Shown: positions 7,914 through 37,207, counted from the first letter of the stretch. The stretch: DNA of 64,000 nt from Acidobacteriota bacterium (GCA_019244185.1 JAFATB010000023.1:1-64000); one strand, 5' to 3'. Translations and numbers: made by a program. Notes: generated by a model not told the origin, from the sequence alone.

Positions 7914-8570
7914 TTACTTCTGCGAGAGCGCCTGTTGCCGCTGCTGAATCTCCGTCCGCAGATCCTGCACCGTGTACACCCACTGGTCGTAGTCTTCGAT
8001 CCCGTTGAAAGAGACGTAGCTCTTGCCGCTGGCGTTCGGACGCACGGCCACGAACGGTCCGGTGTAGTCCTTCGGCGAGGCCTCGGGGATGAGGCGCGTG
8101 CCGGTGGAGCCGAGCGCCGGCGGCGCGGTGGCCTGCGGATTCGTCGCGGGGTTCGACGGATTGCTCGCGGGATTCGACCCCGTCGTCGGTGGTGGCGGCG
8201 GAAGCGGTTGCCCCGGCTGTCCCTGCTGCACGGCCGTCGGCGGCACGAGGATCCAGTCATCGACCTTGCCGGTGAGCGGGCACGGCCACTTGCCGCCTCC
8301 GCGAATGACGCGCGGCTGTCGCGCGTCCTGGAGTTGCTGGAGGCTCGTCGGCGACGCGCTGTGGCGCACCTCGAAGGTCATGATCGAGCGCGCAAACTGC
8401 TTCATGAGAAAGATCGTCTGGCGGTCGCGCTCGCGCTTGAGCACGATCGACCATTGCTCGGGCACGGTGAAGGCGATGATGATCGAGATGATCGTCAGGA
8501 TGACGATCAGTGCCGCGAGCGTGAAGCCTTCTTGCGCGCGCCGCGCGTCAGAGATCTTTGTAGGGGACAT
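7914..8570 (-). CDS. Type II secretion/T4P pseudopilin, K-like (no Glu5)
   Basis: Class III signal QEG|FTLAALIVIL; Pro-rich insert. Confidence 0.85.
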   Translation of the reverse strand: MSPTKISDARRAQEGFTLAALIVILTIISIIIAFTVPEQWSIVLKRERDRQTIFLMKQFARSIMTFEVRHSASPTSLQQLQDARQPRVIRGGGKWPCPLTGKVDDWILVPPTAVQQGQPGQPLPPPPPTTGSNPASNPSNPATNPQATAPPALGSTGTRLIPEASPKDYTGPFVAVRPNASGKSYVSFNGIEDYDQWVYTVQDLRTEIQQRQQALSQK

Positions 8571-8994
8571 CGTCGAGCGTCTTCCCCTCCGCCTTGCTCT
8601 TCACGTCGATGAGGCCGGGCTGGAGCAGGTTGTTCGGATCGGGATCAGACGACATGCCGTTCTCGAGGCTCATCGGATCTTCCATGACCGGATCCCAGTC
8701 GGGCTGCTTGGTGATGGGATCGGTCGGAATCTTGCGGAGGTAGTTCGGCACGAGCTCGTTGAGATCGGACGGATAGTGCTGCTTGTCGGCGTAGAAGTTG
8801 TCGATGGCCTTGCGCATCTCGAACAGGTTGTCCTTGAGCGCGGCCTCGCGCGCCTTGCGCGCGGCGAACTTCACGTTGACGATCGCCACGGCGGCGAGGA
8901 TGCCGATGATCGTGACGACGACGATCAGCTCGATCAGGGAAAAGCCGGATTGGCCCGGTCGCCGGCGCAGCTTGCTCATACGCGTGATCACCAT
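8548..8994 (-). CDS. GspG-like pseudopilin
   Basis: QSG|FSLIELIVVVTIIGIL; REAALKDNL..MRKAIDNFYAD..YP..L.ELV; IPTDPIT. Confidence 0.9.
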   Translation of the reverse strand: MVITRMSKLRRRPGQSGFSLIELIVVVTIIGILAAVAIVNVKFAARKAREAALKDNLFEMRKAIDNFYADKQHYPSDLNELVPNYLRKIPTDPITKQPDWDPVMEDPMSLENGMSSDPDPNNLLQPGLIDVKSKAEGKTLDDVPYKDL

Positions 8995-9515
8995 TCGTTG
9001 TAATGCGTCTTTCCGTCGAGCGCCAGCGCGGTCGATTTGGAGTGCACTTCGTAGACGTTGTCGCCGTTGCTGCTCGTCGAGTCGGGATCGTCAGTCGTGG
9101 AGAGCGTGTTCCACTCCTTGCTGCCCGTCATCGGATCGATGAGGTCGCGCTCGCGGATGAGATGCACGGTGCGTCCGTCGGACATCTGCACGCCCTTGAG
9201 CAGCTCATCGAGATTCTTCGGATAGCCGTCCGAGCCGAGCGCCTGCATCTGGGCGGGACCGACCGACGGCAGCGCGACCTGGCCCGGCTGCGGCGGTTGC
9301 GCGAGGTTCGTCTGCATGGTCATGAGGTCGTGATAGCGATCGATGGCGTCGGTGATCTTGCGCAGCCGATCGTGCAGCTCGATCTCCTTCTGCCGCCGGA
9401 TGCCGAAGCGCGCCACGGGCAGCGCCACCGACGCGAGGATGCCGATGATCGCCACGACCGTGACGAGCTCCGCGAGCGTGAAGCCGCGGCTGCGGGTGCG
9501 GTTGCGCTGCAGCAT
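8988..9515 (-). CDS. GspG-like pseudopilin
   Basis: SRG|FTLAELVTVVAIIGIL; GYPKNLDELL; DPMTG; ATG at 9515. Confidence 0.9.
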   Translation of the reverse strand: MLQRNRTRSRGFTLAELVTVVAIIGILASVALPVARFGIRRQKEIELHDRLRKITDAIDRYHDLMTMQTNLAQPPQPGQVALPSVGPAQMQALGSDGYPKNLDELLKGVQMSDGRTVHLIRERDLIDPMTGSKEWNTLSTTDDPDSTSSNGDNVYEVHSKSTALALDGKTHYNEW

Positions 9516-9523
9516 CGGTGTCG

Positions 9524-12133
9524 CTACTGGACGCGCGCCCTTCCTCCCGCGACCGCGGCGACGATGGTGGAACCGTTGCCGTCGCGGAACTCGGGATTCG
9601 ACAGCACGAGGAACGTTTCGCCCGGATTGCCGCCGTGCACGCGGATGGCCAGCACGTCGCCGCCGCCGACGAAATGCAGTCCCTTCCCGTCGCTCGAGGT
9701 CACGCGGATCTGTCCCGCGTTGTGATCGACGCTGACGATGGGCGGCCGCGCCGGATCGACGGCGATGGCGCTGCCGAGCGAAACGTCGGTGACGTCCATC
9801 GCACGCGGGTTGTAGCGCAGCACGATCTCCGGCGCGGTGAGGCCGTCGACGTCCATGGCGATGACGTTCCACACCTTCGTCTCGCCGGGCGAGAGGGCGA
9901 TCGTCGACGGCTGCGCGGCGATGCGAGGCGCGACGCGGAGCGAGCCGCTGTCGTCGGCCGTCGCGAGCACCGTGGCCGCACGCGCGACGGGCGATGACGA
10001 CGACGTCGGCGACGAAGTGCTTGCGGATGCGAGCGAGGCCGCGGGCGTTGTCGACGGCAACGCGAGCTCGTTGCGCGACTCCGGCGTCGGCGGCGGATTG
10101 TTCGGATTCGCGGGCGGCGGCGTGGACGGCGTGCGGAACGGATCGTTCGGCGCGGTGCCCTGCGTCGGCGCGGGCTGCGCGACGACGTCGCCGTTATCGC
10201 CGTTGTCGCTGTTGCCCGGCTCCTGGATGTAGTTGCCCGGCTCACCGTCGGCGAGGCGCTGGTTGTTCGGATTGAACTGCTGTTCCGAGCGGCCCGGGAC
10301 GAACGGATCGGCGCCGATCTGCGACTCGATGCGCGGCGACACTCCGCGGAACGTGAGGTTGTTACCCGTGCCGACCCACATCGGCGCGAGATCCTCCTCG
10401 GTGATGTCCGGGATGCGGATGATGTGCGGCGTCATCGTGAGCACGAGATCGGTGCGCGACTCTTCGTTGTGCGAGTTCGTGAAGAGACGGCCGATGAAGG
10501 GAAGGTCGCCGAGGATCGGCGTCTTCGAGTTGCTCTCGATCTTGTTCGTCTGAATGAGGCCGGCGAGGAAGTTCGTCTCGCCATCCTTGAGGCGGATGGT
10601 CGACTCGATCGTGCGCGTGGCGAACGTCGGCTGGCGCTGGCCGCCGAAGTCGACCGGCGTACCGGTGTTCGACACTTCGACGGTGAGCTTGAGCGTGACC
10701 TCGCGGTTGTGGTGCACGCGCGGCTCCATCGCCACCTTGATGCCGACGTCCTGGTACTGGAACGACGTGTACGGTGTGACGAGCTGGTTCTGGCCGTTCG
10801 ACGTCGTCCCCGGCGAGTAGCCGGCGACGGTGGTGACAGGCACCGGGATGCGCTGGCCGATGTGCAGCGTGGCCTTCTCGCCCTCGGAGATGCGCAGCTC
10901 GGGATTCGCGAGCAGCTCGCTGTTGCCGACGGTCTTGAGCATCGAGTACGTCGCGGTCGGCATCGTGAGGCTGAGGTTGTTCTTGATGTCGTTCACGCTG
11001 CCGAGGACGCGCGCGAGGTCCTGCAGGCTGCCGCCGGTGAAGGTGGCGCGTGCGCCGTCGGCGCCGGCCTGCGTGATCGTGGCGCGCGTGGAGGCGCCGA
11101 GCGAGCCGTCGGCGGCGGGGAAGCCGGCGATGGCGAGGCCGAGGTCGCGGATCTTGTTGAGGTCGAGCTGCACGAGCTCGACGGCGACGACGACTTCGGC
11201 GCGAGCCTTGTCGTTCGCCTCGATGATCTTCTCGGCGATGCGCACCTTGTCGGCGGTGTCGCGGATGGTGATCGCGTTGAGCGCTTTGAGCGGGAAGACG
11301 TTGCGCGCCTCGATCATCGTGCGCACGACGTTGGTCACCTGCTCGGCGTCCCCGTTCGACAGATAGAACGTGCGGATGACGAGGTCCTCGTAGTCGCGCC
11401 GCGCCTGCGGGTTGTCGGGAACGACGATGATCGTGCGCTCGTCGAGCACTTTGTAGAAGTGATTCGCGGCCTGCATGACGCGCTCGAGCGCCTGCTGCGC
11501 GGTGACGTCGCGGAGCTCGATGGTGATGCGGTCGTCCTTGACCGCCTGGTCGAAGAGGACGTTGATGCCGAACGCGTTGCCGAGAGCGCGATAGATGTCC
11601 TTGACCGGCGTGTCGCGCGAGAAGGTCAGCGAGATCGGCTCGTTGGACGCGGGGTTGAGCTGCGGCGGCTGCGCCTTGGTGATGGCCGACTGCGCGCGCT
11701 TCTTGATCTCGTCGACGGAGACGCTCTCCTGCGTCGCGCGCTGGATGTCGTTGATGAGGCCGACCGCCTTCGCCAGCTCCACGGCGGCGTACTGGTTCGT
11801 CGCGTCGAGGCGCACGGTGAGCTGCAGTTCCGTGGCCGCGAGCTGAGCGAGGCGGAGCTGATCGTTTCCCTTCGCCTCGAGCGCGGCGTTGCGCAGCGTC
11901 TTGCCCTTCTCGAAGTGCACGCGCGAGGATTCACGCTTGGCGCGGTCGAGCGCCATCTGGTATTCGCGGTTGGTCGGGCTGATCTGCAGCGCCTGCTCGT
12001 AGCCGAGAACGGCCGCGTCCCAATCCTTCGTTTCCTCCGCCGTCTTGGCGCGCTGGTACGCGTTGTAGCTCGCGCACGACAGCGAAACGAACGAGATCAG
12101 CAGGATCGCGGTGGTGCTTTTCAGTCGATTCAT
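9524..12133 (-). CDS. gspD: Secretin (GspD/PilQ family) lipoprotein with N-terminal helical/TPR region and C-terminal cohesin-like domain
   Basis: Lipobox SLSC; RTFYLSN N3 domain; LHIGQRIPVP, YQDVGIK, RLKDGET, PILGDLPFIGRLF, TPHIIR; Pro-rich linker and beta-rich tail. Confidence 0.9.
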   Translation of the reverse strand: MNRLKSTTAILLISFVSLSCASYNAYQRAKTAEETKDWDAAVLGYEQALQISPTNREYQMALDRAKRESSRVHFEKGKTLRNAALEAKGNDQLRLAQLAATELQLTVRLDATNQYAAVELAKAVGLINDIQRATQESVSVDEIKKRAQSAITKAQPPQLNPASNEPISLTFSRDTPVKDIYRALGNAFGINVLFDQAVKDDRITIELRDVTAQQALERVMQAANHFYKVLDERTIIVVPDNPQARRDYEDLVIRTFYLSNGDAEQVTNVVRTMIEARNVFPLKALNAITIRDTADKVRIAEKIIEANDKARAEVVVAVELVQLDLNKIRDLGLAIAGFPAADGSLGASTRATITQAGADGARATFTGGSLQDLARVLGSVNDIKNNLSLTMPTATYSMLKTVGNSELLANPELRISEGEKATLHIGQRIPVPVTTVAGYSPGTTSNGQNQLVTPYTSFQYQDVGIKVAMEPRVHHNREVTLKLTVEVSNTGTPVDFGGQRQPTFATRTIESTIRLKDGETNFLAGLIQTNKIESNSKTPILGDLPFIGRLFTNSHNEESRTDLVLTMTPHIIRIPDITEEDLAPMWVGTGNNLTFRGVSPRIESQIGADPFVPGRSEQQFNPNNQRLADGEPGNYIQEPGNSDNGDNGDVVAQPAPTQGTAPNDPFRTPSTPPPANPNNPPPTPESRNELALPSTTPAASLASASTSSPTSSSSPVARAATVLATADDSGSLRVAPRIAAQPSTIALSPGETKVWNVIAMDVDGLTAPEIVLRYNPRAMDVTDVSLGSAIAVDPARPPIVSVDHNAGQIRVTSSDGKGLHFVGGGDVLAIRVHGGNPGETFLVLSNPEFRDGNGSTIVAAVAGGRARVQ

Positions 12134-12180
12134 GTCTTCTTCCTGAGTCCTGATGCTGTGACGCCCGAATCGCGGAAACG

Positions 12181-12876
12181 TCACTGCCCGAGAGGGATGC
12201 GCTGCGTGACGTCCGGCGGGAATCCGACGAACCCGATCTCGGCCGACTCGATGCCGATGCGGCGCAGGATGAACTTCCCTTCGATGACGTCTCCGATGCG
12301 CGCGTTGACGATCTCGCCTTCACGCGCGAAGGTGGCGATCGGCGACTGCGGTCTACCGAACATGCCGATGAATTTGTAGTTGAACTGCGGCGGAACCGGC
12401 GCGGGCGGCGGAGGCGGAATCTCCGGCTCCTGTTCGCACGCGGTGCCGATGCCGTCGCCGTCGATGTCTTTCTGATCGGGGTTCGGTACCTTCACGCAGT
12501 TGTCGCGAAAGTCGGGGATGCCGTCCTTGTCCTGGTCGGGCGGCGGCGGTGGCGGCGCGGCGGCAGGAGGCGGCGGCGGTGGGGGCGGCTCTTTGTACGC
12601 GAAGAGATTGCGCTCGCTGCGATAGCTGCCGCTCTCCGGCTCGAGCAGGTCCGTGCGCACGGGCTCGACGCCTGGAACGACGTTCTGCGCGACGCGGTGC
12701 GCGCCGGGCGCGGATGACGGTGCGTCCGCCGACAGCTCGCCGTCCGCCGGTCCCGACGAAGCCGCGACGGGTGCGGGCGAGGAAGACTCGGGCGATGCGA
12801 ACGTGTAGATCGCAAAGGCGGCGATGAGGAGCAGGGCCGCGGCGGTCCAGGGTTTCCAGTTCATCCAGTTCATCAC
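12181..12876 (-). CDS. PilP/GspC-position membrane protein with thrombospondin type-3 repeat
   Basis: N-terminal TM, RNLF motif, poly-Pro, [33 protein letters not shown]-terminal [13 protein letters not shown] beta domain. Confidence 0.75.
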
Positions 12877-13475
12877 AACCGGTTGTTCGCCGCCGGCGCG
12901 GCCGAGTCGTCGCGGAACAGCGTCTTGACGTGCAGATTGAGCGTGAGCTGATTGCCCTCGCGCGCGACGAGCGAGATCGAGTCGATGATCACGAACTGCC
13001 GCGAGAGCTCGAGGAGATTGATGAGTCGCCGCGCCTGATCGTATGTGCCGGTGACGCTGAAGGCGATGCCCACTTCGGTCGCGCCGATCGGCTCCGCGCG
13101 GCGGCGGTTGCCGGCGTTCTGCGCCTGCACGGCCGCGGCGTCGAACGCGTACGACGGCGGCACGAGCGCGCTGGCGACCGCGAGCCGCTTCACCTCGCCG
13201 ATCATGGCCGTTAGGCGCTCGGCCTGCGTCGACCAGTGGTGATCGTAGATGTCCTGCACATCGCGCTCGATGCGGCGGTAGCTCGCGAGCGCGGTGTCCG
13301 CTTTCGCGCGATCCGCTTTCGCCGAGCGCAGCTGCGCTTCCGCTTCGGAGAGGCGCTGTGCCGTCGCGTCGAGACGGCTCTGGTACTGCACGCGATAGGT
13401 GAAGAAGAAGATCGTGTTCGCGGCGAGGATCACCGCGAGGACGATGAGCAGAACCCGTTTCTCGCGCCAGATCAT
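12873..13475 (-). CDS. PilO/GspM-like alignment protein
   Basis: TM + coiled coil + ferredoxin-like core ([16 protein letters not shown]); operon position. Confidence 0.8.
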
Positions 13476-14053
13476 CGCGTGGCTCCGGCGTGCGGCGCGT
13501 CGGGACGGTAACCGACCGTGAGCGAGAAGTGATACCCGCCGGTCGGATCGAGCGTCTCGTTGCTCGGGAACGGATGGTAGAAGCGCGGATCGCGGTTCAT
13601 GCGGTCGATCGTGGTCAGCATGCCGTCGGCGGATTTCGAGTCGAACAGCAGCGAGAGCTGAATGCCGTTCGGCGTGAAGGCCGGCGTGACGGAGCTGAGG
13701 CGCACGTCATCGGAGAGCACCGACTCGAGCTCGTCGAGCAGCGCGCTCCACGAGAACGCGCGCTGGGCCAGCTTCTGGTTGATGAAGCGCGTGCGCTCGT
13801 CGAGACCGGCCAGGTCGAGGCTCTGCAGGCGCCGCTGCGACACCTGCGCGCGTTCGCGCTCCTGCGCCGCCTGCGACTCCACGGTCGCGATCTGCGCGCG
13901 CGTGCTCTTCGTCTCGTGCACGTAGCGGTAGTACGTGCTGATGTTGTTCAGCATCAGGAACGCGGCCAGCAGCGACATGAGCACCACCGCGGCGTACACC
14001 GGCCGGTAGTCCCGGTAGGGACGTGAGGCGAGGTTCAGATGGATCGGCTTCAC
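13472..14053 (-). CDS. PilN-like alignment protein
   Basis: [10 protein letters not shown]-terminal motif, TM, coiled coil, [10 protein letters not shown]...VRL; GTG at 14053. Confidence 0.85.
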
Positions 14054-14946
14054 GCGGTGAATACTCCTGTGCACGCGGTCAGTTCCGCGTCGAGGCCGGT
14101 GATGTCCGCCGGCGCGGCTTCCGCGTAGTCGCGCAGGGCGACCGGACGCACGGGCGTGTTGAATTCGGAGGCGAGCGTCTCGTGCACGGCCTGCGCGTTC
14201 GCGCCGGCGACGTAGCAGTTCTCGAACGTCTCGACCTTCAGCGAGTCGCGCAGGTAGTTCGCCGAGAGGCGGATCTCCTGATCGACGGTGCGGTTCTGGC
14301 TGAGATTGCGCGAGCGGATGAAGAGCGGCTGCGCGCCGCGGAACACCGCGGTGGTGAAGTCTTCCTCGCGTACGTACACGAAGAGGCGGTCGGCGTTCGT
14401 CTCCGCCTCGCGCACCGTGATGGCGTTCCAGATGTTGAGGCCGATCGGCTCGATGAGCACGACGTCGATGCCCGCGGCGGCGAAGACGCGCTCGATCGTG
14501 GCGAGCGTCGATTCCATCGCGCTCAGCACGAGCACTTTCGCGGCGCCGCTCTTTTCTTTCGACAGCACGCTGTACGAAACGCGCAGTTGCTCCGGCGGAA
14601 TCGGCAGCGTGCGCTTGAGGCTCCAGCGCACGACGTCGAGCGCCTCGGCATCCCGCTCCGGGAGCGACGGCAGCTCGACGATGTTGATGCGGAACCACGA
14701 GTCGGGCAGCAGCAGCGACGCCTTGTCCCACTTGCCCGTCTCGTTCTTCAACCGCCGCACCGCCTCGGCGAGCGAGGCTTCGTTCGCCAGCTGCGGCGAG
14801 ACCATCGACGGCGTGAAGGTGCCGGCGGCGAGACGATACGTCTTCGCATTCACGATGCGCGGACCGCTCTTGCCGCGGCCGAGGCGCGCGTGCAGGAGTC
14901 CGTCCGTATCGAGGAGGAGCACGTCGGGAGGAAAAGATCGCGGCAT
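14050..14946 (-). CDS. PilM/GspL-like cytoplasmic protein
   Basis: LLLPDSW, VVRWSLKRTLP, LFIRSR; directly upstream of pilN. Confidence 0.75.
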   Translation of the reverse strand: MPRSFPPDVLLLDTDGLLHARLGRGKSGPRIVNAKTYRLAAGTFTPSMVSPQLANEASLAEAVRRLKNETGKWDKASLLLPDSWFRINIVELPSLPERDAEALDVVRWSLKRTLPIPPEQLRVSYSVLSKEKSGAAKVLVLSAMESTLATIERVFAAAGIDVVLIEPIGLNIWNAITVREAETNADRLFVYVREEDFTTAVFRGAQPLFIRSRNLSQNRTVDQEIRLSANYLRDSLKVETFENCYVAGANAQAVHETLASEFNTPVRPVALRDYAEAAPADITGLDAELTACTGVFTA

Positions 14947-21217: not shown

Positions 21218-21232
21218 GAACGCGCCGCGGCG

Positions 21233-27305: not shown

Positions 27306-27310
27306 GGGTA

Positions 27311-28718: not shown

Positions 28719-30305
28719 TCACGCGATGTCGTCGCCGATCGCCGGAAGCTCGATCGTGACGGCGGCACCGCCGCCGCGCCGCGGCTCGAGCACGATGCGT
28801 CCGCCGTGAAAGAGGATGATCTTCCGCGCGAGCGCGAGTCCCAGTCCGTGGCCGCCGCTCTTGGTCGACTGGAACGGGAGAAAGAGCTTCGCGGTCTGCT
28901 CCGACGCGACGCCGACGCCGTTGTCGGCGATGACGACGCCGGATGTGGCGCCGCCGAAGATGGTGACGTCGATGACGCCGTCGCGTTCCGCCGCCGCAAT
29001 CGCCTCGGCTGCATTCCGCAACACGTTCTCGATGACGCGCCGCAACAGCGCGGCGTCGCCGGCCACGCGTGCGTCGCCGCCGTGAAAGCGGAGGTCGATC
29101 GGCTGCAGCTCCGGCATCGCCTCGGCGACCTCGCGCACGAGCTCGCGCAGGTCGACCGGCTGCATGTCGGGATCGAGCGGACGCGCGAGATGCAGCAGCG
29201 ACTGCACGGCCGCGGCGAGCGTGCGCGCTTCCGCCTCCGCCTGGCCGACGCGATGCTCGGCTTCGGGCGCGAGCGGCAACTTTCGCGTGAGCTGCAGATA
29301 GCCGGTGATCGTCGCGAGCGAGTTGCGGAACTCGTGTGCGATGCCGGCGGAGAGCTCGCCGAGATCGGCGAGCACTTGCATCTCGCGCACGCGCTGCTCG
29401 AGGTGGCGCGTCGGCGTGAGGTCGGTGAAGAGCGCGAGAAGGCCGAGGTACTGGCCGTGCGCGTCGAGGAGCGGGACGGTCGTGAGGCCGAAGACTTTCC
29501 CCGCGTGCGGCTCCGCGACTTCCTGCCGCTGCACGGCGGCGCGCGCATCGACGGCGGCCTGCAGCGCGTGTGCGAACTCGGTGTCGCCGAGGAGTTCCGC
29601 GATCGCGCGCCCGGTGACGGTGCCGCCCGCGGGCAGGTCGAGAAGCTCGCGCGCGGCGTGGTTGACATCGACGATCGCACCGTTCGCGTCGACGGAGATG
29701 AAGCCCGACGCGAGGTTACGGACGAGCGTCGCGGTGACGGTCGCGAGCTCGTCGGCGCGGCCTTTCAGAAAACGGATCGACGACTCGAACGACTGATACA
29801 GCGGCTGCTCTTCGATCGTGTCGCGACGCTCCTCCGCGTTGCCGAACGATCCTTTGCCGAGGATCGCGGCGGCGTTGATGGCGAAGAGGATCACGCTCGC
29901 GAGCGCGCCGGCCGTCGCGACGACGACGAGCGAACGCAGCGCGCCCGTCGGCGATCCCGGTGAGCCGCTGTAAAACGCCACTTCGAGCAACGCGCCGTTC
30001 ACCGGACGATAGAGACGCAGCGCCCCGTCGCCGCGCGCGTGTGGTCGATCGACCAGTGCGAGCGAAACGTCGTGGTGCTGCCCGATCAACGCGATCGTCG
30101 ACGGCGAGACGTCGCGATGAGTCGTCGCGGCGAGGCGGACTTCCGCGGCGCACGCATCGGCGATCGCGGCGCGCGCGTTCTGCCGGGCTACGGTCGCGGC
30201 GACGTACAGCGCGGGGACGGCGGCGGTGATGCCGATGACGAAGACGCCGAGGACGACGACCACCGCCGTGCGGTAGATGCCGCTCATCGCGTTGCGCGAC
30301 TTCAT
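28719..30305 (-). CDS. PAS-domain sensor histidine kinase (PilS/NtrB-like)
   Basis: Two TMs, PAS, GIAHEFRNSL H-box, NVLRNAAEA, DNGVG, PFQSTK, GLGL. Confidence 0.9.
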   Translation of the reverse strand: MKSRNAMSGIYRTAVVVVLGVFVIGITAAVPALYVAATVARQNARAAIADACAAEVRLAATTHRDVSPSTIALIGQHHDVSLALVDRPHARGDGALRLYRPVNGALLEVAFYSGSPGSPTGALRSLVVVATAGALASVILFAINAAAILGKGSFGNAEERRDTIEEQPLYQSFESSIRFLKGRADELATVTATLVRNLASGFISVDANGAIVDVNHAARELLDLPAGGTVTGRAIAELLGDTEFAHALQAAVDARAAVQRQEVAEPHAGKVFGLTTVPLLDAHGQYLGLLALFTDLTPTRHLEQRVREMQVLADLGELSAGIAHEFRNSLATITGYLQLTRKLPLAPEAEHRVGQAEAEARTLAAAVQSLLHLARPLDPDMQPVDLRELVREVAEAMPELQPIDLRFHGGDARVAGDAALLRRVIENVLRNAAEAIAAAERDGVIDVTIFGGATSGVVIADNGVGVASEQTAKLFLPFQSTKSGGHGLGLALARKIILFHGGRIVLEPRRGGGAAVTIELPAIGDDIA

Positions 30306-30343
30306 CAGCCGCGAGAGTAACAGGGGAGAGGTTGCGAGGGGAG

Positions 30344-30378
30344 CGGAAGACGGCGGCGCATGGCGCCGCCGTCTTCCG
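30344..30378. terminator. Perfect 16-bp hairpin downstream of the large C25 gene
   Basis: CGGAAGACGGCGGCGC-ATG-GCGCCGCCGTCTTCCG; no strong U-tract. Confidence 0.55.
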
Positions 30379-30390
30379 GATCGGTTTCGA

Positions 30391-33300
30391 TTACCGCAGC
30401 TTCATCGACGGATCGCCGAACAGGATCCACGACTTGCGCACGTCGTGATCGGCCGTGGCGGCCTTCGCGCGCGCGGCCGCTTCGCCGAGCGTGCGGTTCG
30501 ACGGGAAGAGCTGGCGGAACATCTCTTCGGCGACGACCTGCTGCGAGTCGGGCTGCGTCAGCGCGGACGAGGTCCACACCGCCACCGCGCCGCCGTTCGG
30601 GTTCTGCAGAAGCGCTTCGCCGAGGCTGGTCTGGTAGAGGTCGTGGAAGTACGCGTTGAGGCAAGTCATCGCGAAGACGACCGGCTGCCGCTGCCCGTTC
30701 GTGAGCGCGAGCGCGTCGTTGCTGTCGAACGTGTTGCGCCACAGATCGACCGAGCCGTGGCCGAAGTAGGTCGCCAGCAGCTGGCCGGAGTTGAGCGACG
30801 AGAGGAGCGCCGTGCGGTCGTGCGCGATCGTCGTCGACGTGAGCGTGTTCGGCGTCAGCGCGCGCGCCGCGGTGGCGGCGCCGTCGAAGTCATAGCCGTC
30901 GTTGAAGTCGGTGAAGAAGAGCGCCTTCGTCGTCCACGCGCCGGCCGCATCGCTGCCGCGTCCGCGCTGGACGACCTTGTTGATCATCGTCTGTGCTTCG
31001 GATGCGTTGCGGGCCGGGAGGCGGCCGATGGCGACGTCTTCGATGTCGTCGCTGTTGAAGTCGGCGAGCCACGCATCGGACGCCGTCTTCATGACGTCGA
31101 CCGGCACGAGTTTCGTCGGCACGAGATCGGGCACGCCGAAGCCGAGGTAGTTGCGCGGATCGACGTTCGCGTCCCCGACGAGCAGCGCGAAGCGCGGAGC
31201 GGTCTTCCACTTGCGCGCGCTGCTGAGGAAGTCGCGGATCGCGGACGGGCCGCGCACGCCGAAGTTGAACTCGTCGAAGAGCGACTCGACGTCGACGATC
31301 TTCGTGGAGATGCCTTCCGCGTCGCGGCGCGTCTTCAGCGGCGCGGCGGCGGAGGCGAACTCCGCGGGCGCGATGACGACCATGTCCGCGGTGTTCTTCT
31401 TGTCGTTCAGCGTCGAGGCCGGACGCGACACGATCTGCCGGGGCGCGTCGACGCGCGGGGCGCCGACGAAGAGCAGCGTGCGCTTCGCCGTGCCGGTGCG
31501 CAGCGCCGAGGCCGTCGCGGTGTACGTGCCGCCGGTCGAGGTGCGCACGACGAGCGCGACGTCGAACGGATCGAGCGAGTTGGTGACGTCGATCGCGCGG
31601 ATCGCGTTCGTGGTGAAGCCCTTCACGGTGACGGACGCGCCGGGCACCGCGATGACTTTGAGCGCGTTGTTGTCCGCGACGAGCTTGTGCAGATACGTGA
31701 GGCGCACCGACTCGACGACGCTGACGTCTTCGTCGCCGCCGAGCGCGGTGATGCCGAGCGTGTTCGTGCCTGCCTGCAGCGCGGACGCGGGGATGCTCAC
31801 CGTCTTGACGTTGCGCGTCATGCCGGTGAAGTTGTACGTCGTCAGCGCCGCACCATTCAGCGTCAGCGCGATCCCGTGCTGCACCTCGGTCGCCCCCTGC
31901 AGCGTGAGCTCGAGCGTGGCCGCGCCGCTCGCATCGAGCTGCTCGACCGTGAGGTCCTGCGTCACCGGCGCGGACGAGACGATCGCGCCGAAGAAGTTGT
32001 CGCGGTCGCCGTTGTTGACCAGCGCGGTGAAGAAGACCGTGCGCTCGATGCGCTCAAACGTGTAGCTCGTGTTCGACGGCAGCGCCGTGGCCGTGCGCGA
32101 GCCGGCGTCGGAGCGGAGCCGCAGCGGCAGGCCTTTGCCCTTCGTGACGAAGTACGCGTGGGCGCCGCTCGACGGCGTGTCGAGCGCGGTGCCGTAGAAC
32201 TCGATCGCGTCGTTCGCGTCGAACGAGCCGTCGCCGCCGTCGGAGACGAAGATCGGGCATTCGTTGCCGTCGACGTACAGGCGCACCGCGTCAGGCACGG
32301 TGCCCGGATCGAAGCCGGCGGCCACGATCGCGCTCTTGGTGACGCGATACCACCCCTCGTGCGTGACGTAGAGCTTCGCGGCGGGCGCGCCGAGGATCGC
32401 GTACTGCTGATTGACGCGGCGGGTGTCGAATACCTGCGTGATCGGCTGCTGCGCCGCGAAGCCGCGCGCGGAGACGAAGATGCCGCCGTTCTCGAGCGGC
32501 GCGGCATTCGCGAGCGTCGGCGCGTCGACGGTCGCCATCGCGGCGGCGGTGAAGCCGCTGTGGACGACGGGCGTGATCGGGCCGTGCATCGTGTGCTCGC
32601 CGTTGAGGTCGACGTCTTCGAGCCAGTACTGCACGAACGAGCCGGCGTCGACGTTGTCCTTCCACTGATAGGAGCGGCCCGACTCGAGTCTGCGCGAGGC
32701 GGTGAAGAACGCGGAGCCGGCGATGACGTACGGGTTGATCTTCTCGCGCTCGCCGCCGCTGCGCTGGCGATAGAGGTTGAAGCCGAGATTGTCGGACTCG
32801 AAGCTGGTCTTCCAGGAGACGACCACGTGGCCGTTGCCGTCCTGCTCCGCGTCGAGCGAGAGCACGCGCGCGAACGTCGGCGCGGGCACGTTCGAAACGA
32901 ACGACGCGCTGTTGTTCGTCGTGTTCGTCTCGGACTCGTTGATCGCGACGGTGGCCGTGTTGGTGACCTGCGTCGTGTTGACGGTGATGGTGCCGGTGAT
33001 GGTGATGACCTGCGTTGCGTTCACGGCGAGCGACGCGTAGTTGCACGTCACGGTGCCGCTCGCGAACGTGCACGTCGGCGAGCCCGGCGAGACGTTGGTA
33101 AACGAGACGCCCGACGGGATCGGATCGCTGACGACGACGCCGGTGGCAATCGTCGGGCCGTTGTTCTTGGCGGTCAGCGTGTAGGTGATGGTCTGCCCGA
33201 AGAAGATCGGATCGGGGCTGCCGGTCTTCGTGATCTGCACGTCGGTCTTGTGGACCGTGGTGGTCGTGCTGGCGGTGTTGTTCGCCGTGTTCGTCTCGGG

Positions 33301-36243
33301 GTTCGTCGTCGCGGTCGTGACGCTCTGCGTGATCGTGGTCGGATCGGCGAGCGCGGTGGACGTCTTGACGACGAGCTGGAAGTTGCCGGTGGTCGCACCC
33401 GCGGCGAGCGCGGTGCCCGCGGCGATGGTGCAGGTGATCGTGCCGGTGCCGCCGACGGCCGGCGTGGTGCACGACCAGCCCGCGGGCGGCGTCATCGAGA
33501 CGAACGTCGTGCCCGGAGGCGTCGTCTGCGTGAGCGTGACGCCGTAGGCCGGGATGTTCGTCGAGTTGTTCGTGACGGATTCGGTGTAGGTGATGTTGCC
33601 GCCCGCGCCGACGGGATCGGGCGAGTCGGAGATGGCGACGGAGATGTCCGTGCAGCCGGACTTGATGCCGGTGATCTGATCGAAGTCGGCCGTCGTCACG
33701 ATGGTGCCGACCGCGCCCGGCTGCGCGCCGAACGTGTCGTTCGCATCGGTGGTGATGCCGGACGTGCCGCCGAGGACGCTCGAAGCGCCGTTCGGAGTGC
33801 CGTTGGTGGCGATGTAGCCGCCCGCACCGCCGCCGCCGGGGCCGTGACGCTCGCCGGGGTATCCGCCGTTCGCATGGCCGCGCCATGCGTCGCCGCCGTC
33901 GCCGCCGTCGGCGTGCATGGTGAGACCGTTGATGCCGCCGTTGTGCGAGAGCACGACGATCGAGCCGCCGGCGCCACCGCCGCCGCCGCCGTCATTGAGC
34001 GTGTCGTCGTAGGCGTCGGCGCCGTTCGCGTTGATGGTCGCGGTGCCGCTCAGGTTCGCGGCGCGGATGAGGACCATGCCGCCGCCGGCCGCGCCGGAGC
34101 CGCCGAGGTCGCCGGTTGCGTCGCTGTTGTTGCGCGCGCCGCCGCCGCCGCCGCCGCCGAGAACCGCGCGGCCCGGAGAGTCGAAGAACGGAGCGCCGCC
34201 GAAGCCGCCGCGCGCCTGATTGGACTGCCACGCGTTGCCGCCGCCGCCGCCGCGGCCCCAGTTGCCGCCGCCGCCGCCGCCGGAGTTCTGGTCGTTGACC
34301 GTACCGGTATCGGTGCCGCCGCCGCCCGCGTTCGCGGGAGCACCGCGGCCGTAGTCGCCATTGGGATAACCCTGCGGGCCGATGTCGAGCGTCGCGCCCG
34401 AATCGAACAGCAGCTCGGGCGAGCCTGCGATGCCTTCACCCTTGATGCCGTGCGTGTCGTCGGTGGCGATCGCGTTTCGATAGTCGTCCGGCTGCGCGGT
34501 GCCGTTGCCGTCCTGCTGGATGCCGGCCGCGCCGCGGAAGCCCTGGCCGTTCACGCTGACGGTGGCGCTGTTGAGCGTGAGCTGACCGGCGACGTCGATG
34601 GCGAGAATGCCGCCGGTGAAGCCCGTCGTGGTCGTGCCGCCCCACGGACGCGCGGTCAGCGCGGCGCCGAGCGTCGCGTTGAGATACTGCGGCACGCGCA
34701 CGACCTGGAAGCGCCGTTGTCCCTGCGTCGCGGTCGCGGCCGCGTTCGTGTACGCGTACACGAGACCGCCGGAGCCGTTGACGCCGGTGAAGGTGATCGT
34801 GCCGCCCGCCGCGCCGATCGCGGTCGCATTCGTCGCGACCACGTATTCGTAGCGGCCGGCATTGTTCGCGTTGGTGTAGCCGGCGCCGATGCCGGTCACG
34901 CTGCCGGCGACGCCCGCGCCGTTGCCGTAGCGGTCGTCGTTCGTGCTGTCGATCGCCGCGTCCTGCATCTGGATGATGAGCAGCAGGTCGCCGGCGGTGA
35001 TCGAGTTCGCGGCGCCGGTGCGCGTGCCGGCGGTGATCGAGGTCGCGCCCGCGGCGGCGCTGGCCGTGCCCGGCCAGTAGGAGTTCACGACACCCGTGAT
35101 CGGCGCGGCGGGCGTGCCGTCCTTGCCCGGCTGCGTGCCGCAGACCGTGGCCTGCACGAGCGAGTAGGAGCTCGCGCTGGCGGTGTTCGGCGTGCCGGGG
35201 TCGACGGTGGTCGTCGTCACGGTCCCGGTGTTCGCCGCGATCGCGCCGCCGGTGAGCGGTGCGACGACCTGAATCGAAATCGAGGCGGTGGCGCCGTTCG
35301 TGAGCGTGCCGACGGTGCAGGTGACGGTCGTCGTGCCGCTGCAGGTTCCCTGCGTCGTCGTCGAACTGACGAACGTCACCGTGCCGGGAAGCGTGTCGGT
35401 GACGGTGACGCCGTTCGCGGCCGACGGGCCGTTGTTGTAGACGTAGAAGGTGTAGGTGAGAATCCCGCCCGGTGCGACCGGATCGGGAAGCGCGCTTTCA
35501 TTGAGCTCGACGTCGGCCTGCGCGGGCCGCACGTTGACGGCGATGTCGGTCCAGCTGCGATTGGCCGACAGCGTCCAGCTCATCGTGGTCGTGCCGGCCG
35601 CGGCGGCGCGGCGGCTGCTGGCCGCCTGGACGTCGTTGTTCGACGTGCCGGCGTTGGAGATGTTGTAGTTCTGGGTTTGCGCGGCGTTGACGGTGAGCGT
35701 CACCGACTCGCGCGCGGAGACGAAGTCCACGATGGTGTCGTTCGTGGCGGAGGTCAGTGCGGTCGACGTCGCAGGACTCGTGGTGCCGGTGTTTGTCGAC
35801 ACGATCGTCGACGGCATCGTCTGATTCGCGCCGGAGTACGTGATCGCGCCGATCACCCCGCGGACGGTCTGGCCCGCGCCGACGCCGCCCATCGTCACAC
35901 TCACATTGTTCGTTCCCGTGTTCGGATTGAGCAGGTACCACACCTCGGTACGCGTATCGACGGCCGCGTCCGTGATCGCTTCGAGCAGCGTCAGCGTCTG
36001 CGCGCCGTACGAGACGCTCGTCACCGTCGCGCCGGTCGGCGTGTTGACGTTCATGTGCACGCCGACGAGCAGCAGGCGATTGTTCGCCGTAGCTGCCGGG
36101 ATCGTGTGCGCCATCGTGACGGTCGGCGCGCCGTTGGTGAAGTTCGCCGCCGCCGAGTTCTGCACGACGAGCGTGGCCTGCGCCATAGCGGACGCGGCAA
36201 CGAAAAACGAGACGATTGCAGCAGGGATCAACCGGCGCAGCAT
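30391..36243 (-). CDS. 1950-aa secreted protein: beta-rich N domain, DUF11 Ig-like repeats, Gly-rich region, C-terminal C25 peptidase domain
   Basis: Signal peptide (AMA/Q); PDPV...LTYT..V.NNGP..A.GV.V.D.LP repeats; GAPANAGGGG; W.TSFESDNLGFNLYR; LFDEFNFG, IGRLPAR, YFGHGS, MTCLNAYF, LFGDPS. Confidence 0.9.
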   Translation of the reverse strand: MLRRLIPAAIVSFFVAASAMAQATLVVQNSAAANFTNGAPTVTMAHTIPAATANNRLLLVGVHMNVNTPTGATVTSVSYGAQTLTLLEAITDAAVDTRTEVWYLLNPNTGTNNVSVTMGGVGAGQTVRGVIGAITYSGANQTMPSTIVSTNTGTTSPATSTALTSATNDTIVDFVSARESVTLTVNAAQTQNYNISNAGTSNNDVQAASSRRAAAAGTTTMSWTLSANRSWTDIAVNVRPAQADVELNESALPDPVAPGGILTYTFYVYNNGPSAANGVTVTDTLPGTVTFVSSTTTQGTCSGTTTVTCTVGTLTNGATASISIQVVAPLTGGAIAANTGTVTTTTVDPGTPNTASASSYSLVQATVCGTQPGKDGTPAAPITGVVNSYWPGTASAAAGATSITAGTRTGAANSITAGDLLLIIQMQDAAIDSTNDDRYGNGAGVAGSVTGIGAGYTNANNAGRYEYVVATNATAIGAAGGTITFTGVNGSGGLVYAYTNAAATATQGQRRFQVVRVPQYLNATLGAALTARPWGGTTTTGFTGGILAIDVAGQLTLNSATVSVNGQGFRGAAGIQQDGNGTAQPDDYRNAIATDDTHGIKGEGIAGSPELLFDSGATLDIGPQGYPNGDYGRGAPANAGGGGTDTGTVNDQNSGGGGGGNWGRGGGGGNAWQSNQARGGFGGAPFFDSPGRAVLGGGGGGGARNNSDATGDLGGSGAAGGGMVLIRAANLSGTATINANGADAYDDTLNDGGGGGGAGGSIVVLSHNGGINGLTMHADGGDGGDAWRGHANGGYPGERHGPGGGGAGGYIATNGTPNGASSVLGGTSGITTDANDTFGAQPGAVGTIVTTADFDQITGIKSGCTDISVAISDSPDPVGAGGNITYTESVTNNSTNIPAYGVTLTQTTPPGTTFVSMTPPAGWSCTTPAVGGTGTITCTIAAGTALAAGATTGNFQLVVKTSTALADPTTITQSVTTATTNPETNTANNTASTTTTVHKTDVQITKTGSPDPIFFGQTITYTLTAKNNGPTIATGVVVSDPIPSGVSFTNVSPGSPTCTFASGTVTCNYASLAVNATQVITITGTITVNTTQVTNTATVAINESETNTTNNSASFVSNVPAPTFARVLSLDAEQDGNGHVVVSWKTSFESDNLGFNLYRQRSGGEREKINPYVIAGSAFFTASRRLESGRSYQWKDNVDAGSFVQYWLEDVDLNGEHTMHGPITPVVHSGFTAAAMATVDAPTLANAAPLENGGIFVSARGFAAQQPITQVFDTRRVNQQYAILGAPAAKLYVTHEGWYRVTKSAIVAAGFDPGTVPDAVRLYVDGNECPIFVSDGGDGSFDANDAIEFYGTALDTPSSGAHAYFVTKGKGLPLRLRSDAGSRTATALPSNTSYTFERIERTVFFTALVNNGDRDNFFGAIVSSAPVTQDLTVEQLDASGAATLELTLQGATEVQHGIALTLNGAALTTYNFTGMTRNVKTVSIPASALQAGTNTLGITALGGDEDVSVVESVRLTYLHKLVADNNALKVIAVPGASVTVKGFTTNAIRAIDVTNSLDPFDVALVVRTSTGGTYTATASALRTGTAKRTLLFVGAPRVDAPRQIVSRPASTLNDKKNTADMVVIAPAEFASAAAPLKTRRDAEGISTKIVDVESLFDEFNFGVRGPSAIRDFLSSARKWKTAPRFALLVGDANVDPRNYLGFGVPDLVPTKLVPVDVMKTASDAWLADFNSDDIEDVAIGRLPARNASEAQTMINKVVQRGRGSDAAGAWTTKALFFTDFNDGYDFDGAATAARALTPNTLTSTTIAHDRTALLSSLNSGQLLATYFGHGSVDLWRNTFDSNDALALTNGQRQPVVFAMTCLNAYFHDLYQTSLGEALLQNPNGGAVAVWTSSALTQPDSQQVVAEEMFRQLFPSNRTLGEAAARAKAATADHDVRKSWILFGDPSMKLR

Positions 36244-36406
36244 GGACCTTCTCCTTAGGACGATGAGCGTGTTGAACAGCTTACGGCGCGAGGACGTTCC
36301 CGCGGCGCCTCTCTTCGCGACGTTATCCTGACCTAGTTCGCCGCCTCTGGGCGCTCGGCAGCCGTCAAGAAGCCGTGAAATGTGCCGATTTCCGGCCGCG
36401 CTTCGC

Positions 36407-37207
36407 TTAGAAGGCGATGCCGGGCATCAGCAACGGCTCGATGTCGCGTCCGAAGAACAACATGACGAGCGCCGCAAGTCCGAGAAAAACGCCGAAGGGC
36501 AATTCCGCCTTCATGCCCTTCGCGCTGCGCGCCGCGACGGTGATGCCGATGACCGCGCCGGAGACGGACGCGAGCAGTAGCACGGGAAACAAGGCCTGCC
36601 ATCCGAGGATCGCGCCGAGCATCGCCATCATCTTCACGTCGCCGAGTCCCATGCCTTCGATCTTCTGCACGAGCTTGTAGGCGAGCGCGATGGCGAGAAT
36701 GCCGCCCGCACCGATGAGCGCGCCGAGAATCGACTCGCGCAACGTCGAAGCGAGCGCGAGCTCCGGATGCAACGCGCCGAGATGCAAAGCGCCGATCGCC
36801 AGACCGATGGCGACGCCCGGAAGGTCGATCACGTCGGGGAGAATCTGAATGTCGAGGTCGATGTAGATGAGCGCGATGAGCATCGACACGACGGCCGCGA
36901 CGAGCAGAAACGCGGGCGAGAGTCCCGTGCGCTGAAAGATGGCGAGATAGAACAGCGCGTTAGCGAGCTCGACTAGCGGATAGCGCGCGCCGATCGGCTC
37001 ATGACACTCGCGGCAGCGTCCGCGGAGCCAGAGGTAGCTGACGATCGGGATGTTGTCGTACGGCCGGATCGGCGTCGCGCAATGCGGGCAGCGGCTCGGC
37101 GGAAAGACGATCGATTCCTCGCGCGGATAGCGATGGATGACGACGTTGAGGAAGCTGCCAAAGATCGCCCCAAGAGCGAACGCCACAACCGAAAAGAACA
37201 AACCCAT
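36407..37207 (-). CDS. pilD: Prepilin peptidase/N-methyltransferase (A24)
   Basis: GSFLNVVIHR.P, SRCPHC, GRCREC, IDLDIQILPD, GMGLGDVK, PFGVFL. Confidence 0.95.
   Translation of the reverse strand: MGLFFSVVAFALGAIFGSFLNVVIHRYPREESIVFPPSRCPHCATPIRPYDNIPIVSYLWLRGRCRECHEPIGARYPLVELANALFYLAIFQRTGLSPAFLLVAAVVSMLIALIYIDLDIQILPDVIDLPGVAIGLAIGALHLGALHPELALASTLRESILGALIGAGGILAIALAYKLVQKIEGMGLGDVKMMAMLGAILGWQALFPVLLLASVSGAVIGITVAARSAKGMKAELPFGVFLGLAALVMLFFGRDIEPLLMPGIAF

Follow-up and report, generated by a model that had tools for sequence, protein, structure and literature searches.

Two C25 peptidase genes within a type IV filament locus of an Acidobacteriota bacterium: possible cargo of the neighbouring machine

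A filament machine of mixed character

Positions 7914-37207 of the DNA analysed here (the window, a stretch of 64,000 nucleotides) were found by family-profile scans to hold a type IV filament machine locus together with two large C25 protease genes. Based on the source names of homologues, the host was judged to be a member of the Acidobacteriota, class Thermoanaerobaculia. The T2SS/type IV pilus genes named in a preliminary description of this DNA were all present, with strong statistics overall, and its seven pilin genes (three pseudopilins and four further prepilins) proved to be present.

The core machine genes are read on the minus strand, from 18001 down to 7914. The platform protein GspF/PilC (16589-18001, 470 aa; T2SSF, E 1e-51) scored 299 bits against GspF (cutoff 424) and 267 bits against PilC, both below cutoff, and the GspE/PilB assembly ATPase (14949-16574, 541 aa; T2SSE, E 4e-130, with an N-terminal MshEN domain, E 3e-16) was likewise below cutoff for both GspE (543 bits, cutoff 630) and PilB (533 bits). 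The best PDB match of the ATPase was PilB (429 bits), with GspE at 348 bits on truncated constructs. These genes are followed by those for a PilM-like protein (14050-14946, 298 aa), with a weak, below-cutoff match to pilM (TIGR01175, E 8e-5, 21.8 bits), a PilN-like protein (13472-14053, 193 aa) that has no family match and is so named only for its position and single membrane helix, and a GspM/PilO-like bitopic membrane protein (12873-13475, 200 aa; T2SSM_b, E 0.003, and GspM_XpsM, E 1e-4, both weak). The PilP position is taken by a Pro-rich protein that carries thrombospondin type 3 repeats (12181-12876; TSP_3, E 2e-5), the gene of which overlaps each of its neighbours by 4 bp. The secretin (9524-12184, 886 aa; Secretin, E 6e-41, and Secretin_N) scored higher against GspD (167 bits, cutoff 351) than against PilQ (113) or MshL (98), all below cutoffs, and matched PDB entries of GspD with 79.5 bits and of PilQ with 57 bits. 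It ends in an extension of ~290 aa with a weak cohesin-like match (Cohesin, E 3.6e-4, below cutoff); a dockerin partner for this region was sought, and no protein of the locus gave a dockerin match.

Three pilin-type genes complete this set. A prepilin with the motif GFTLAE (8988-9515, 175 aa; N_methyl, E 2e-6) conforms to the strict prepilin pattern, and a candidate major (pseudo)pilin with GFSLIE (8548-8994, 148 aa; N_methyl, E 9e-9) scored 49 bits against Myxococcus-type PilA and 43 bits against GspG (cutoff 89), both below cutoff, its best PDB matches being Geobacter PilA-N, Myxococcus PilA and GspG. The last is a pseudopilin-like protein with a class III signal, GFTLAA (7914-8570, 218 aa; N_methyl, E 0.0017), which conforms to the loose prepilin pattern, lacks Glu5 and has weak GspG/ComGC matches.

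The minor-pilin cassette, also on the minus strand, includes an Ala/Pro-rich secreted protein that has no family match and is not a prepilin (21233-21928, 231 aa, or 202 aa if begun at 21841), a GspH-like minor prepilin (21900-22484, 194 aa; N_methyl, E 1e-5; GspH, E 1e-4; TIGR01708, E 4e-8) and a minor prepilin of the strict pattern with GYSLAE (22606-23712, 368 aa; N_methyl, E 8e-7). Beside these lies a giant prepilin of 1201 aa (23709-27314, GLTLVE; N_methyl), a candidate tip subunit with a PilV-like N-terminus. It has 774 homologues at E<=1e-5, and the best 120 of these are 44-84% identical, 119 of the 120 over 99-100% of the query; judged by these alignments, it is conserved across the Thermoanaerobaculia. 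Its AF2 model (pTM 0.79) had no match in the PDB at E<=1e-3 and no usable one in the ESM Atlas. The adjoining prepilin-type protein (27311-28606, 431 aa, GFALII, loose pattern) has no family match, and its size and missing Glu5 suggest that it may be GspK/PilX-like. Also on the minus strand are a PAS-HisKA-HATPase sensor histidine kinase (28719-30305, 528 aa), recognised from its domain matches, with an AtoS-like protein as best NCBIfam match (228 bits, below cutoff) and no adjoining response regulator gene, and the prepilin peptidase PilD/GspO (36407-37207, 266 aa; A24_N_bact, E 5e-36; Peptidase_A24, E 9e-17).

All gene types of the T2SS set GspD, GspE, GspF, GspG-type pseudopilin and prepilin peptidase are thus present, and every equivalog score is below its cutoff. 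GspC and GspL had no match in the locus, and the PilM-like and PilN-like genes stand in their place. Among the minor pseudopilins, one is GspH-like and one is the Glu5-less GspK/PilX-like candidate; the 368-aa and 1201-aa proteins were not assignable. With regard to the T4aP set, the ATPase is nearest PilB (by PDB match), PilM is weak, PilN, PilO and PilP are placed by position, and the secretin is nearer GspD. Taken as a whole, the locus encodes a bona fide machine of the type IV filament kind, in which T2SS and T4aP traits are mixed. No third C25 gene, T9SS gene (including the partners PorV, PorZ, PorQ, Sov and PorKLMN) or PilT was seen in the scanned ORFs of the 64-kb window, as had been stated earlier for T9SS and PilT; pilT is commonly located elsewhere in the genome, so its absence from a window of this length says little. 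A promoter scan of 17800-37600 returned 0 sites, and the 7 terminator-like sites in the same interval, against 12.2 expected by shuffling, are uninformative. Rfam searches of the whole window gave no riboswitch and matched tRNA-Sec and tRNA-Ala only.

The C25 proteins and their family

The two C25 genes that had been reported within the locus matched PF01364 with E 9e-77 (259.3 bits) and E 6e-73 (246.7 bits), where the cutoff is 23. The gene for the first (C25_1, protein P0001, 1053 aa) lies on the plus strand at 18056-21217 and is divergent from gspF across a spacer of 54 bp. That for the second (C25_2, P0002, 1950 aa), on the minus strand at 30391-36243, is co-directional and has pilD on one side (163-bp gap) and the kinase on the other (85-bp gap), the kinase that had been noted beside it being the PAS histidine kinase. 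Such a short divergent spacer, and such short co-directional gaps, are compatible with co-expression. Repeats found over 7000-38000 were solely internal to coding sequence, together with an inverted similarity between the C25 genes (I1 and I2, 75-76%); the same search gave no insertion-marking repeats flanking the C25 genes, and a domain scan gave no mobile-element genes flanking them.

Each protein carries a signal peptide of the Sec type, and neither has a prepilin signal. In C25_1 the signal is followed by a CBM66-like jelly roll (residues ~28-220), which fits a secreted enzyme, an Ig/FN3-like domain (~225-325), PorU-like beta domains (~375-700) and the C25 catalytic domain (713-1049), with which the protein ends. 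Foldseek matched its AF2 model (pLDDT 86.5) to PorU (6za2_B, E 2.4e-25 over 819 aligned columns), to RgpB (TMt 0.66) and Kgp (TMt 0.58-0.62), indicating a caspase-like alpha/beta fold, and to CBM66 (TMt 0.79-0.82). In C25_2 the Sec signal precedes an N-terminal domain, DUF11, a Gly-rich AgmC_N-like region (374-816), three DUF11 repeats and a PorU-like module of ~820 aa that is common to C25_1 and ends in C25 (1621-1949); DUF11 matched with E 7e-48 and AgmC_N with 89 bits, and residues 360-860 found unnamed or DUF11 clusters only in the ESM Atlas. Against the PorU model NF033707 (1095 positions, cutoff 420), C25_1 scored 266.1 bits over positions 2-734 and C25_2 207.1 bits over positions 8-732.

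The observation of the preliminary description that both C25 domains keep the His-Cys dyad (GHGS...TCLN) was confirmed by alignment with RgpB, in which His211 and Cys244 correspond to His926 and Cys960 of C25_1 and to His1829 and Cys1861 of C25_2. The catalytic His and Cys were invariant in 26/26 relatives, and in the C25_2 group the His was kept in 42/42 and the Cys in 41/42, the remaining one being a gap. Both proteins are accordingly predicted C25 cysteine peptidases with an intact dyad. C25_1 has 68 homologues. C25_2 has 38 full-length relatives in the Thermoanaerobaculia, at 51-58% identity, a degree of conservation that appears about equal to that of the giant prepilin; among these relatives the N-terminal Gly-rich region is 62-75% identical, versus 38-57% for the C25 module.

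C25_1 and C25_2 belong to separate clades, so they are not the products of a local duplication. The ~820-aa C-terminal module had 17,937 representatives at E<=1e-3, mostly labelled Acidobacteriota. Among the best 150, proteins of 666-3254 aa, 142 have the module ending no more than 10 aa from the C-terminus, and in a second set it ended within 20 aa in 146/150. The N-terminal regions of the family vary, and precomputed Pfam annotation gives DUF11, Ig, CarboxypepD_reg, beta-helix, G8 and PATR among them. On sequence grounds, C25_1 and C25_2 each represent a different branch of this very large family of modular proteins, which is mostly from Acidobacteriota and predicted to be exported by Sec. 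In each member the constant module is fused to a variable N-terminal region of binding or adhesin-like type, which is a CBM66-like lectin in C25_1 and DUF11 repeats with a Gly-rich region in C25_2.

Gene neighbourhoods and possible roles

Linkage in relatives was examined in the best 80 of at least 590 matches to C25_1, with flanks of up to 10 kb, a sample in which none of the 80 loci is that of a close relative of C25_2. In 0/80 of these loci was gspE, gspF, a secretin, pilD, a PilMNOP-like gene or a prepilin found in the flanks; as positive control for the prepilin patterns, the window gave 5 strict and 7 loose matches. In this sample, the check for linkage of C25 genes to T2SS/T4P loci thus turned out negative. 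The three full-length Thermoanaerobaculia relatives of C25_1 (L006, 50% identical; L001, 44%; L032, 40%) lie in unrelated contexts, as do the nearest C25_2 relatives in the sample (L068, L048 and L071). The recurrent neighbours of the family are radical-SAM/SPASM, PqqD and NTP_transf_5 genes (28/80 loci). Across the 80 loci 131 C25 ORFs were counted, often arranged in tandem, and single MAGs contribute five loci each, i.e., CAVTUR (L009, L012, L033, L040 and L043) and DATMCM (L021, L026, L038, L052 and L070). In one relative, a C25_1 homologue of 87% identity and a giant prepilin of 84% identity are both on 55,964-bp contigs, probably the same contig. Within this sample, the co-location of C25 genes with a filament locus appears lineage-specific and not a family-wide rule.

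Likewise, contigs of 81,959 bp carry the C25 protein P0045 and the prepilin P0080, and contigs of 5,030,005 bp carry the C25_2 relative P0360 and the prepilin P0076; these shared lengths, like that of 55,964 bp, are suggestive only and do not imply adjacency.

Our preferred reading, held tentatively and at somewhat less than even odds, is that the C25 proteins are exported modular proteases, probably cargo of the machine and not conserved parts of it. Sec would export them to the periplasm, where they would fold, and their passage through the outer membrane would most plausibly be via the adjacent secretin-based machine, as its cargo; their N-terminal binding domains would then aim proteolysis outside the cell or at its surface. 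T2SS cargo carries no recognisable signal, and it is thus from the position of their genes, and from that only, that the C25 proteins would be called cargo. There are precedents for such a position: pulA adjoins the T2SS genes of the Klebsiella pul cluster, and PulA is cargo. In excerpts of a report on SslE of E. coli, the gene for this large secreted protease is described as lying beside T2SS genes, with which it is co-regulated, and SslE secretion as T2SS-dependent (PMC3707838). The absence of conserved linkage counts as much against a compulsory pairing of cargo and machine as it does against a role as a machine part. It also sits well with a rather unlikely reading in which the genes are neighbours with no functional link, i.e., multi-copy paralogues, mobile within the genome, that came to lie inside the filament locus by chance in this lineage. 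The number of C25 ORFs, the MAGs with five loci, the absence of linkage from the whole sample and the family's real recurrent neighbours all suit chance, as does the count of 774 homologues of the giant prepilin versus 68 of C25_1, by which the machine is much more widely distributed than the C25_1 group. However, two independent C25 clades in a single 29-kb locus, with short intergenic gaps, are more than one chance insertion would give, the C25 genes have no flanking repeats or mobile-element genes, and one relative probably has the 87% and 84% homologues on a single contig.

The core inference of the preliminary description tied the C25 enzymes to the machine, one or both acting as PorU-like peptidases or transpeptidases that mature, release or anchor the pilus tip, here the giant prepilin, or exported adhesins. 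With no linkage in 80/80 loci examined, and with the PorU-specific C-terminal part (positions ~735-1095) and CTD missing and scores below cutoff, this inference was not supported, and we consider it improbable; nor does the window hold PorV, PorZ, PorQ or a CTD-bearing substrate. It does gain from a fold and architecture closest to the T9SS sortase PorU and not to the gingipains, from the conserved dyad, and from C25_2, which is class-conserved, as is the giant prepilin, and lies co-directionally between pilD on one side and the kinase and minor-pilin cassette on the other. The better conservation of the Gly-rich region of C25_2 than of its C25 module tells against it, suiting a functional 'passenger'. 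There is, by our estimate, only a slim chance that C25_2 would be a dedicated accessory of the class-wide filament machine, a T9SS-free PorU-type peptidase or transpeptidase that would process the giant pilin or secreted adhesins, or attach them covalently to the cell surface; should C25_2 be beside pilD and the pilin cassette in relatives too, this would favour a conserved member of the locus with a closer functional tie. Most improbable of all would be that the constant C-terminal module is a self-acting device for export, anchoring or autoprocessing of the variable N-terminal passenger, which it would display or release with no need of the neighbouring machine, much as an autotransporter or a releasing peptidase does. 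Such a device would account for the strictly polar architecture and the very wide range of passenger lengths, and caspase-fold peptidases are known autoprocessing domains of large surface proteins, as noted in excerpts of a study of polymorphic toxins that mention gingipains in passing (PMC3482391). It is, however, drawn purely from architecture, neither a cleavage site nor an anchor motif was found, and the C25_1 model consists of soluble beta-sandwich and alpha/beta domains, with soluble proteins as its best solved-structure matches.

The earlier statement that the combination is undescribed was in agreement with our literature searches, which found no paper with C25/PorU and T2SS/T4P and turned up nothing relevant on Acidobacteria C25 proteins or Thermoanaerobaculia pili. 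To our knowledge, the Bacteroidota T9SS is the only setting in which PorU-type C25 enzymes are understood, and we know of no description of a T9SS in Acidobacteriota. A very large and as yet uncharacterised family (the 17,937 representative clusters) is defined by a PorU-like module that lacks the C-terminal third and CTD, and the outer-membrane route and targets of its members would inform protein turnover and surface biology in the abundant soil Acidobacteriota. The missing synteny weakens the idea of a secretion-coupled sortase and narrows the question to one gene, C25_2; if C25_2 were a machine accessory, PorU-like sorting would be an older mechanism, independent of any one secretion system. 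A further feature of the locus is the giant prepilin, which is found class-wide and resembles no known fold.

Comparison with known systems

In common with type IVa pilus systems, the locus has PilM/N/O/P-like genes and then a secretin, in that order, a prepilin peptidase and a PilB-like ATPase; unlike them, it has no PilT in the window, and its secretin and pilins are closer to the GspD and GspG types (GspG-like motif). As in T4aP systems with a minor-pilin/PilY1 tip cassette, the cassette holds a very large subunit and a sensor kinase gene lies within the pilin genes, but here the large subunit is one of the prepilins and has neither a PilY1-like nor any other known fold.

The designation of the C25 proteins as gingipain/PorU-like in the preliminary description stands. 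Homology and the dyad bear it out, and both proteins are nearer PorU than the gingipains: PorU (PDB 6ZA2, NF033707) is the best match in sequence and fold, and its C25 domain is likewise preceded by homologous beta domains. The last ~360 residues of PorU, the uncleaved CTD among them, have no counterpart in C25_1 or C25_2. According to excerpts of a PorU study, this CTD spans A1054-Q1158 and is retained in PorU (PMC11285876). The two proteins also differ from PorU in their Acidobacteriota host, in belonging to a multi-copy family and in their additional, variable N-terminal binding domains. With the gingipains RgpB and Kgp, which are secreted proteases, they share a caspase-like catalytic fold, the His211/Cys244 equivalents and the joining of adhesin-type domains; unlike in gingipains, the catalytic domain forms the very C-terminal end and does not follow an N-terminal prodomain, and no Ig-like domain plus CTD is downstream of it. 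Asp163, which confers Arg-specificity on RgpB, aligns with Ala in C25_1, in a stretch that is poorly aligned.

The T2SS loci of sslE and pulA differ from the present one in that PilM/N/O/P-like genes here replace GspC and GspL, PilB is the closest match of the ATPase, the linkage is not kept for relatives of C25_1, and the status of cargo is putative. The similarity is to E. coli T2SS-beta (sslE, pppA) and Klebsiella pul, in each of which a gene for a large Sec-dependent enzyme, a route that is predicted for the C25 proteins, is found beside genes for the secreton and its prepilin peptidase.

Gene content and type of the filament locus

The window has a high GC content (0.61-0.72), and its genes were chosen by third-position GC and open frames, with start codons refined afterwards. 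Pfam and NCBIfam scans confirmed the gene inventory that the preliminary description had given for the locus at 7914-37207. The machine genes follow one another closely down the minus strand (18001 to 7914), most of them overlapping by 4 bp, and encode GspF/PilC (16589-18001), GspE/PilB with an MshEN domain (14949-16574), a PilM-like protein (14050-14946; weak match), a membrane protein called PilN-like from its position alone (13472-14053), a GspM/PilO-like protein (12873-13475; weak match), a Pro-rich protein in the PilP position (12181-12876), a secretin (9524-12184) and three prepilins (8988-9515, 8548-8994 and 7914-8570). The gene for C25 protein 1 (C25_1; P0001, 1053 aa; 18056-21217, plus strand) points away from gspF across a 54-bp spacer, and the minus-strand genes of 21233-37207 run convergent on it. 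These encode a small Ala/Pro-rich secreted protein (21233-21928), a GspH-like prepilin (21900-22484), a 368-aa prepilin (22606-23712), a giant prepilin of 1201 aa (23709-27314), a GspK/PilX-like protein without Glu5 (27311-28606), a PAS histidine kinase (28719-30305), C25 protein 2 (C25_2; P0002, 1950 aa; 30391-36243) and the prepilin peptidase PilD (36407-37207). Housekeeping genes flank the locus. The scanned ORFs of the 64-kb window included no PilT, T9SS or third C25 gene, which bears out the claim that T9SS genes and PilT are absent from it.

On mixed typing evidence, we class the machine as a type IV filament system that is T2SS-like but has an alignment module of the PilMNOP type. NCBIfam scores of the ATPase, platform protein and secretin were slightly higher for T2SS models, all below cutoffs. 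In the PDB, the ATPase was nearest to PilB (429 bits over residues 21-539, versus 348 bits for GspE on N-terminally truncated constructs), the secretin to GspD, and the N-terminus of the 148-aa pilin to Geobacter and Myxococcus PilA, with GspG next. GspC and GspL are absent from the locus.

Several other features were observed in and around these genes. The secretin has a C-terminal extension of ~290 aa (residues ~590-886) with a weak cohesin-like match (E 3.6e-4, below cutoff), and a dockerin, looked for as its partner, was not found among the locus proteins; the adjoining PilP-position protein (12181-12876, minus strand) carries thrombospondin type 3 (TSP3) Ca-binding repeats. An M16 (insulinase-type) peptidase gene (6596-7882, minus strand) lies just beyond the coordinates given for the locus, after a 31-bp gap from the last pseudopilin gene, and may form one transcription unit with the pseudopilin genes. 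The locus kinase (28719-30305) is AtoS-like and has no adjoining response regulator; a sigma-54-dependent response regulator and a PAS histidine kinase are encoded ~17 kb from the locus (54498-57245, minus strand). At the other edge, 205 bp beyond pilD, is a tRNA-Sec gene (37412-37508, minus strand; Rfam, 71 bits), and between the two is a 61-nt inverted repeat, 84% complementary (37228-37403); repeat and tRNA gene may together mark an integration hotspot, or else form a terminator.

Two predicted proteases resembling part of PorU

Both C25 proteins begin with ordinary Sec signal peptides, and both end where the C25 domain ends. The nearest solved structure for each was PorU (6za2), with RgpB second, and the His-Cys dyad attributed to them held up, the GHGS and TCLN motifs of both aligning with RgpB His211 and Cys244. 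In C25_1 the residues are His926 and Cys960, kept in 26/26 aligned relatives, and in the C25_2 group alignment the His was present in 42/42 and the Cys in 41/42. The NCBIfam PorU model was matched from position 2 to ~734 of 1095, at 266 bits for C25_1 and 207 bits for C25_2 (cutoff 420), so the homology covers the N-terminal domains and the catalytic domain without the C-terminal third. According to PMC11285876, that third of PorU includes its uncleaved CTD (A1054-Q1158); in contrast to PorU, both C25 proteins are missing it.

An AF2 model of C25_1, built on a 49-sequence alignment (pLDDT 86.5, pTM 0.79), matched PorU in Foldseek over 819 columns (E 2.4e-25) and RgpB with a TMt of 0.66, while its N-terminal domain (~28-220) resembled CBM66 lectin modules (TMt 0.79-0.82). 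In C25_2, the same PorU-like module is preceded by DUF11 repeats and a Gly-rich AgmC_N-like region.

The C25 family and its genomic neighbourhoods

When the last 829 residues of C25_1 were used as a query, 17,937 representative proteins matched at E<=1e-3 and 5,464 at E<=1e-30. In 142 of the best 150 matches (666-3254 aa, median 1355) the module stopped no more than 10 residues short of the C-terminus, and in 146 of a second set of 150 no more than 20. The family thus consists of a constant C-terminal PorU-like module of ~820 aa, C-terminal in nearly all matches listed, and a highly variable N-terminal region, for which precomputed Pfam assignments included DUF11, Ig, CarboxypepD_reg, beta-helix, G8 and PATR. 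In the limited literature collection searched, we found no paper on this Acidobacteriota C25 family, nor one on C25 proteins in combination with T2SS/T4P.

A genome scan with the family alignment confirmed 590 stretches, and the best 80 loci, ranked by similarity to C25_1, were kept with flanks of up to 10 kb per side. They come from species-representative genomes and contain 131 C25 ORFs, commonly in tandem; 71 of the 80 are labelled Acidobacteriota. In a few loci, typical members also occurred under record titles naming 'Clostridia' (L018, L029, L039, L049), 'Patescibacteria' (L028), 'Actinomycetota' (L058), 'Abditibacteriaceae' (L061) and 'delta proteobacterium' (L078), which may reflect misbinning, mislabelling or hosts outside the Acidobacteriota.

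The preliminary description had staked its case on conserved linkage of C25 genes to T2SS/T4P loci, and among these 80 best-ranked loci there was none. A phmmer search of 20 window proteins against all their ORFs returned C25 proteins in 80/80, histidine kinases in three, one M16 peptidase and nothing else: gspE, gspF, the secretin, pilD, the PilMNOP-like proteins and the seven prepilin-type proteins were each found in 0/80. A prepilin-signal pattern that recovers five (strict) or seven (loose) prepilins in the window likewise found none in the 80 loci. The three Thermoanaerobaculia loci with full-length relatives of C25_1 (L006, 50%; L001, 44%; L032, 40%) had as neighbouring genes a transposase, a GGDEF protein, methyltransferases, TIG/Calx-beta giants, PLD, YkuD and UvrD, and the nearest C25_2 relatives among the loci (L068, L048, L071) lay in unrelated gene contexts. 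A FastTree phylogeny of 149 modules, with two PorU-like proteins as the root, placed C25_1 and C25_2 in different supported clades, which rules out local duplication as the origin of the pair.

What did recur beside the family, in 28/80 loci (among them L002, L008, L010, L016, L022, L028, L036, L039, L041, L047, L057, L064, L072 and L073), was a cassette directly adjoining the C25-family genes, in many cases same-strand and at a distance of 0-173 bp. It combines a radical-SAM/SPASM enzyme and an uncharacterised protein of ~320 aa with an NTP_transf_5 nucleotidyltransferase and/or PqqD. These loci are mostly of Blastocatellia and Terriglobia; the cassette is in none of the six Thermoanaerobaculia loci, nor in the window. 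For part of the family, the arrangement is suggestive of a link to a peptide maturase.

The negative linkage result is weakened by the ranking on C25_1, since the neighbourhoods of 38 C25_2 relatives and of the giant-prepilin relatives fall outside the sample. These 38 full-length proteins (51-58% identity, 1852-1928 aa) are all from Thermoanaerobaculia where named. Among 41 relatives, the Gly-rich region (residues 300-1000 of P0002) is 62-75% identical, versus 38-57% for the C25 module; to judge by this conservation, the function of C25_2 may reside chiefly in its N-terminal 'passenger'. The giant prepilin shows comparable conservation across Thermoanaerobaculia, with 774 homologues, the best 120 of which are 44-84% identical and 119 of these aligned over 99-100% of the query. 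Its AF2 model (pTM 0.79, pLDDT 75) had no PDB match at E<=1e-3, and nothing beyond the pilin stalk and an FN3-like domain at the C-terminus was recognisable. GC over its gene (0.61-0.63) is lower than in the remaining locus. An 87% relative of C25_1 and an 84% relative of the giant prepilin are both on contigs of 55,964 bp, a C25 homologue (P0045) and a giant-prepilin homologue (P0080) on contigs of 81,959 bp, and a C25_2 relative (P0360) and another giant-prepilin homologue (P0076) on contigs of 5,030,005 bp; the three equal-size pairs hint at co-occurrence on one contig, not adjacency. The protein search returned no C25_2 relative above 58% identity, so the contig of the 84-87% relatives either ends short of the C25_2 gene or is without it.

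Candidate roles of the C25 proteins

The description of the locus therefore stood, while the mechanism proposed for it, a PorU-like, secretion-coupled processing or anchoring system, found no support in synteny or in features specific to PorU. The C25 genes are most simply read as encoding modular proteases that are exported. A sortase or processing role for them we consider improbable, what credit it keeps resting mainly on the question of C25_2; that the C-terminal module is self-acting seems more improbable still. It is also rather unlikely, in our estimate, that the C25 genes are simply unlinked neighbours of the filament locus.

If they are functionally linked to it, the C25 proteins would be cargo of the neighbouring machine, a reading that is quite possible and stops a little short of probable. 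A precedent for such cargo of an adjoining machine is SslE: as reported in PMC3707838, sslE lies directly upstream of the E. coli T2SS-beta genes and is co-regulated with them, and SslE secretion requires the prepilin peptidase PppA.
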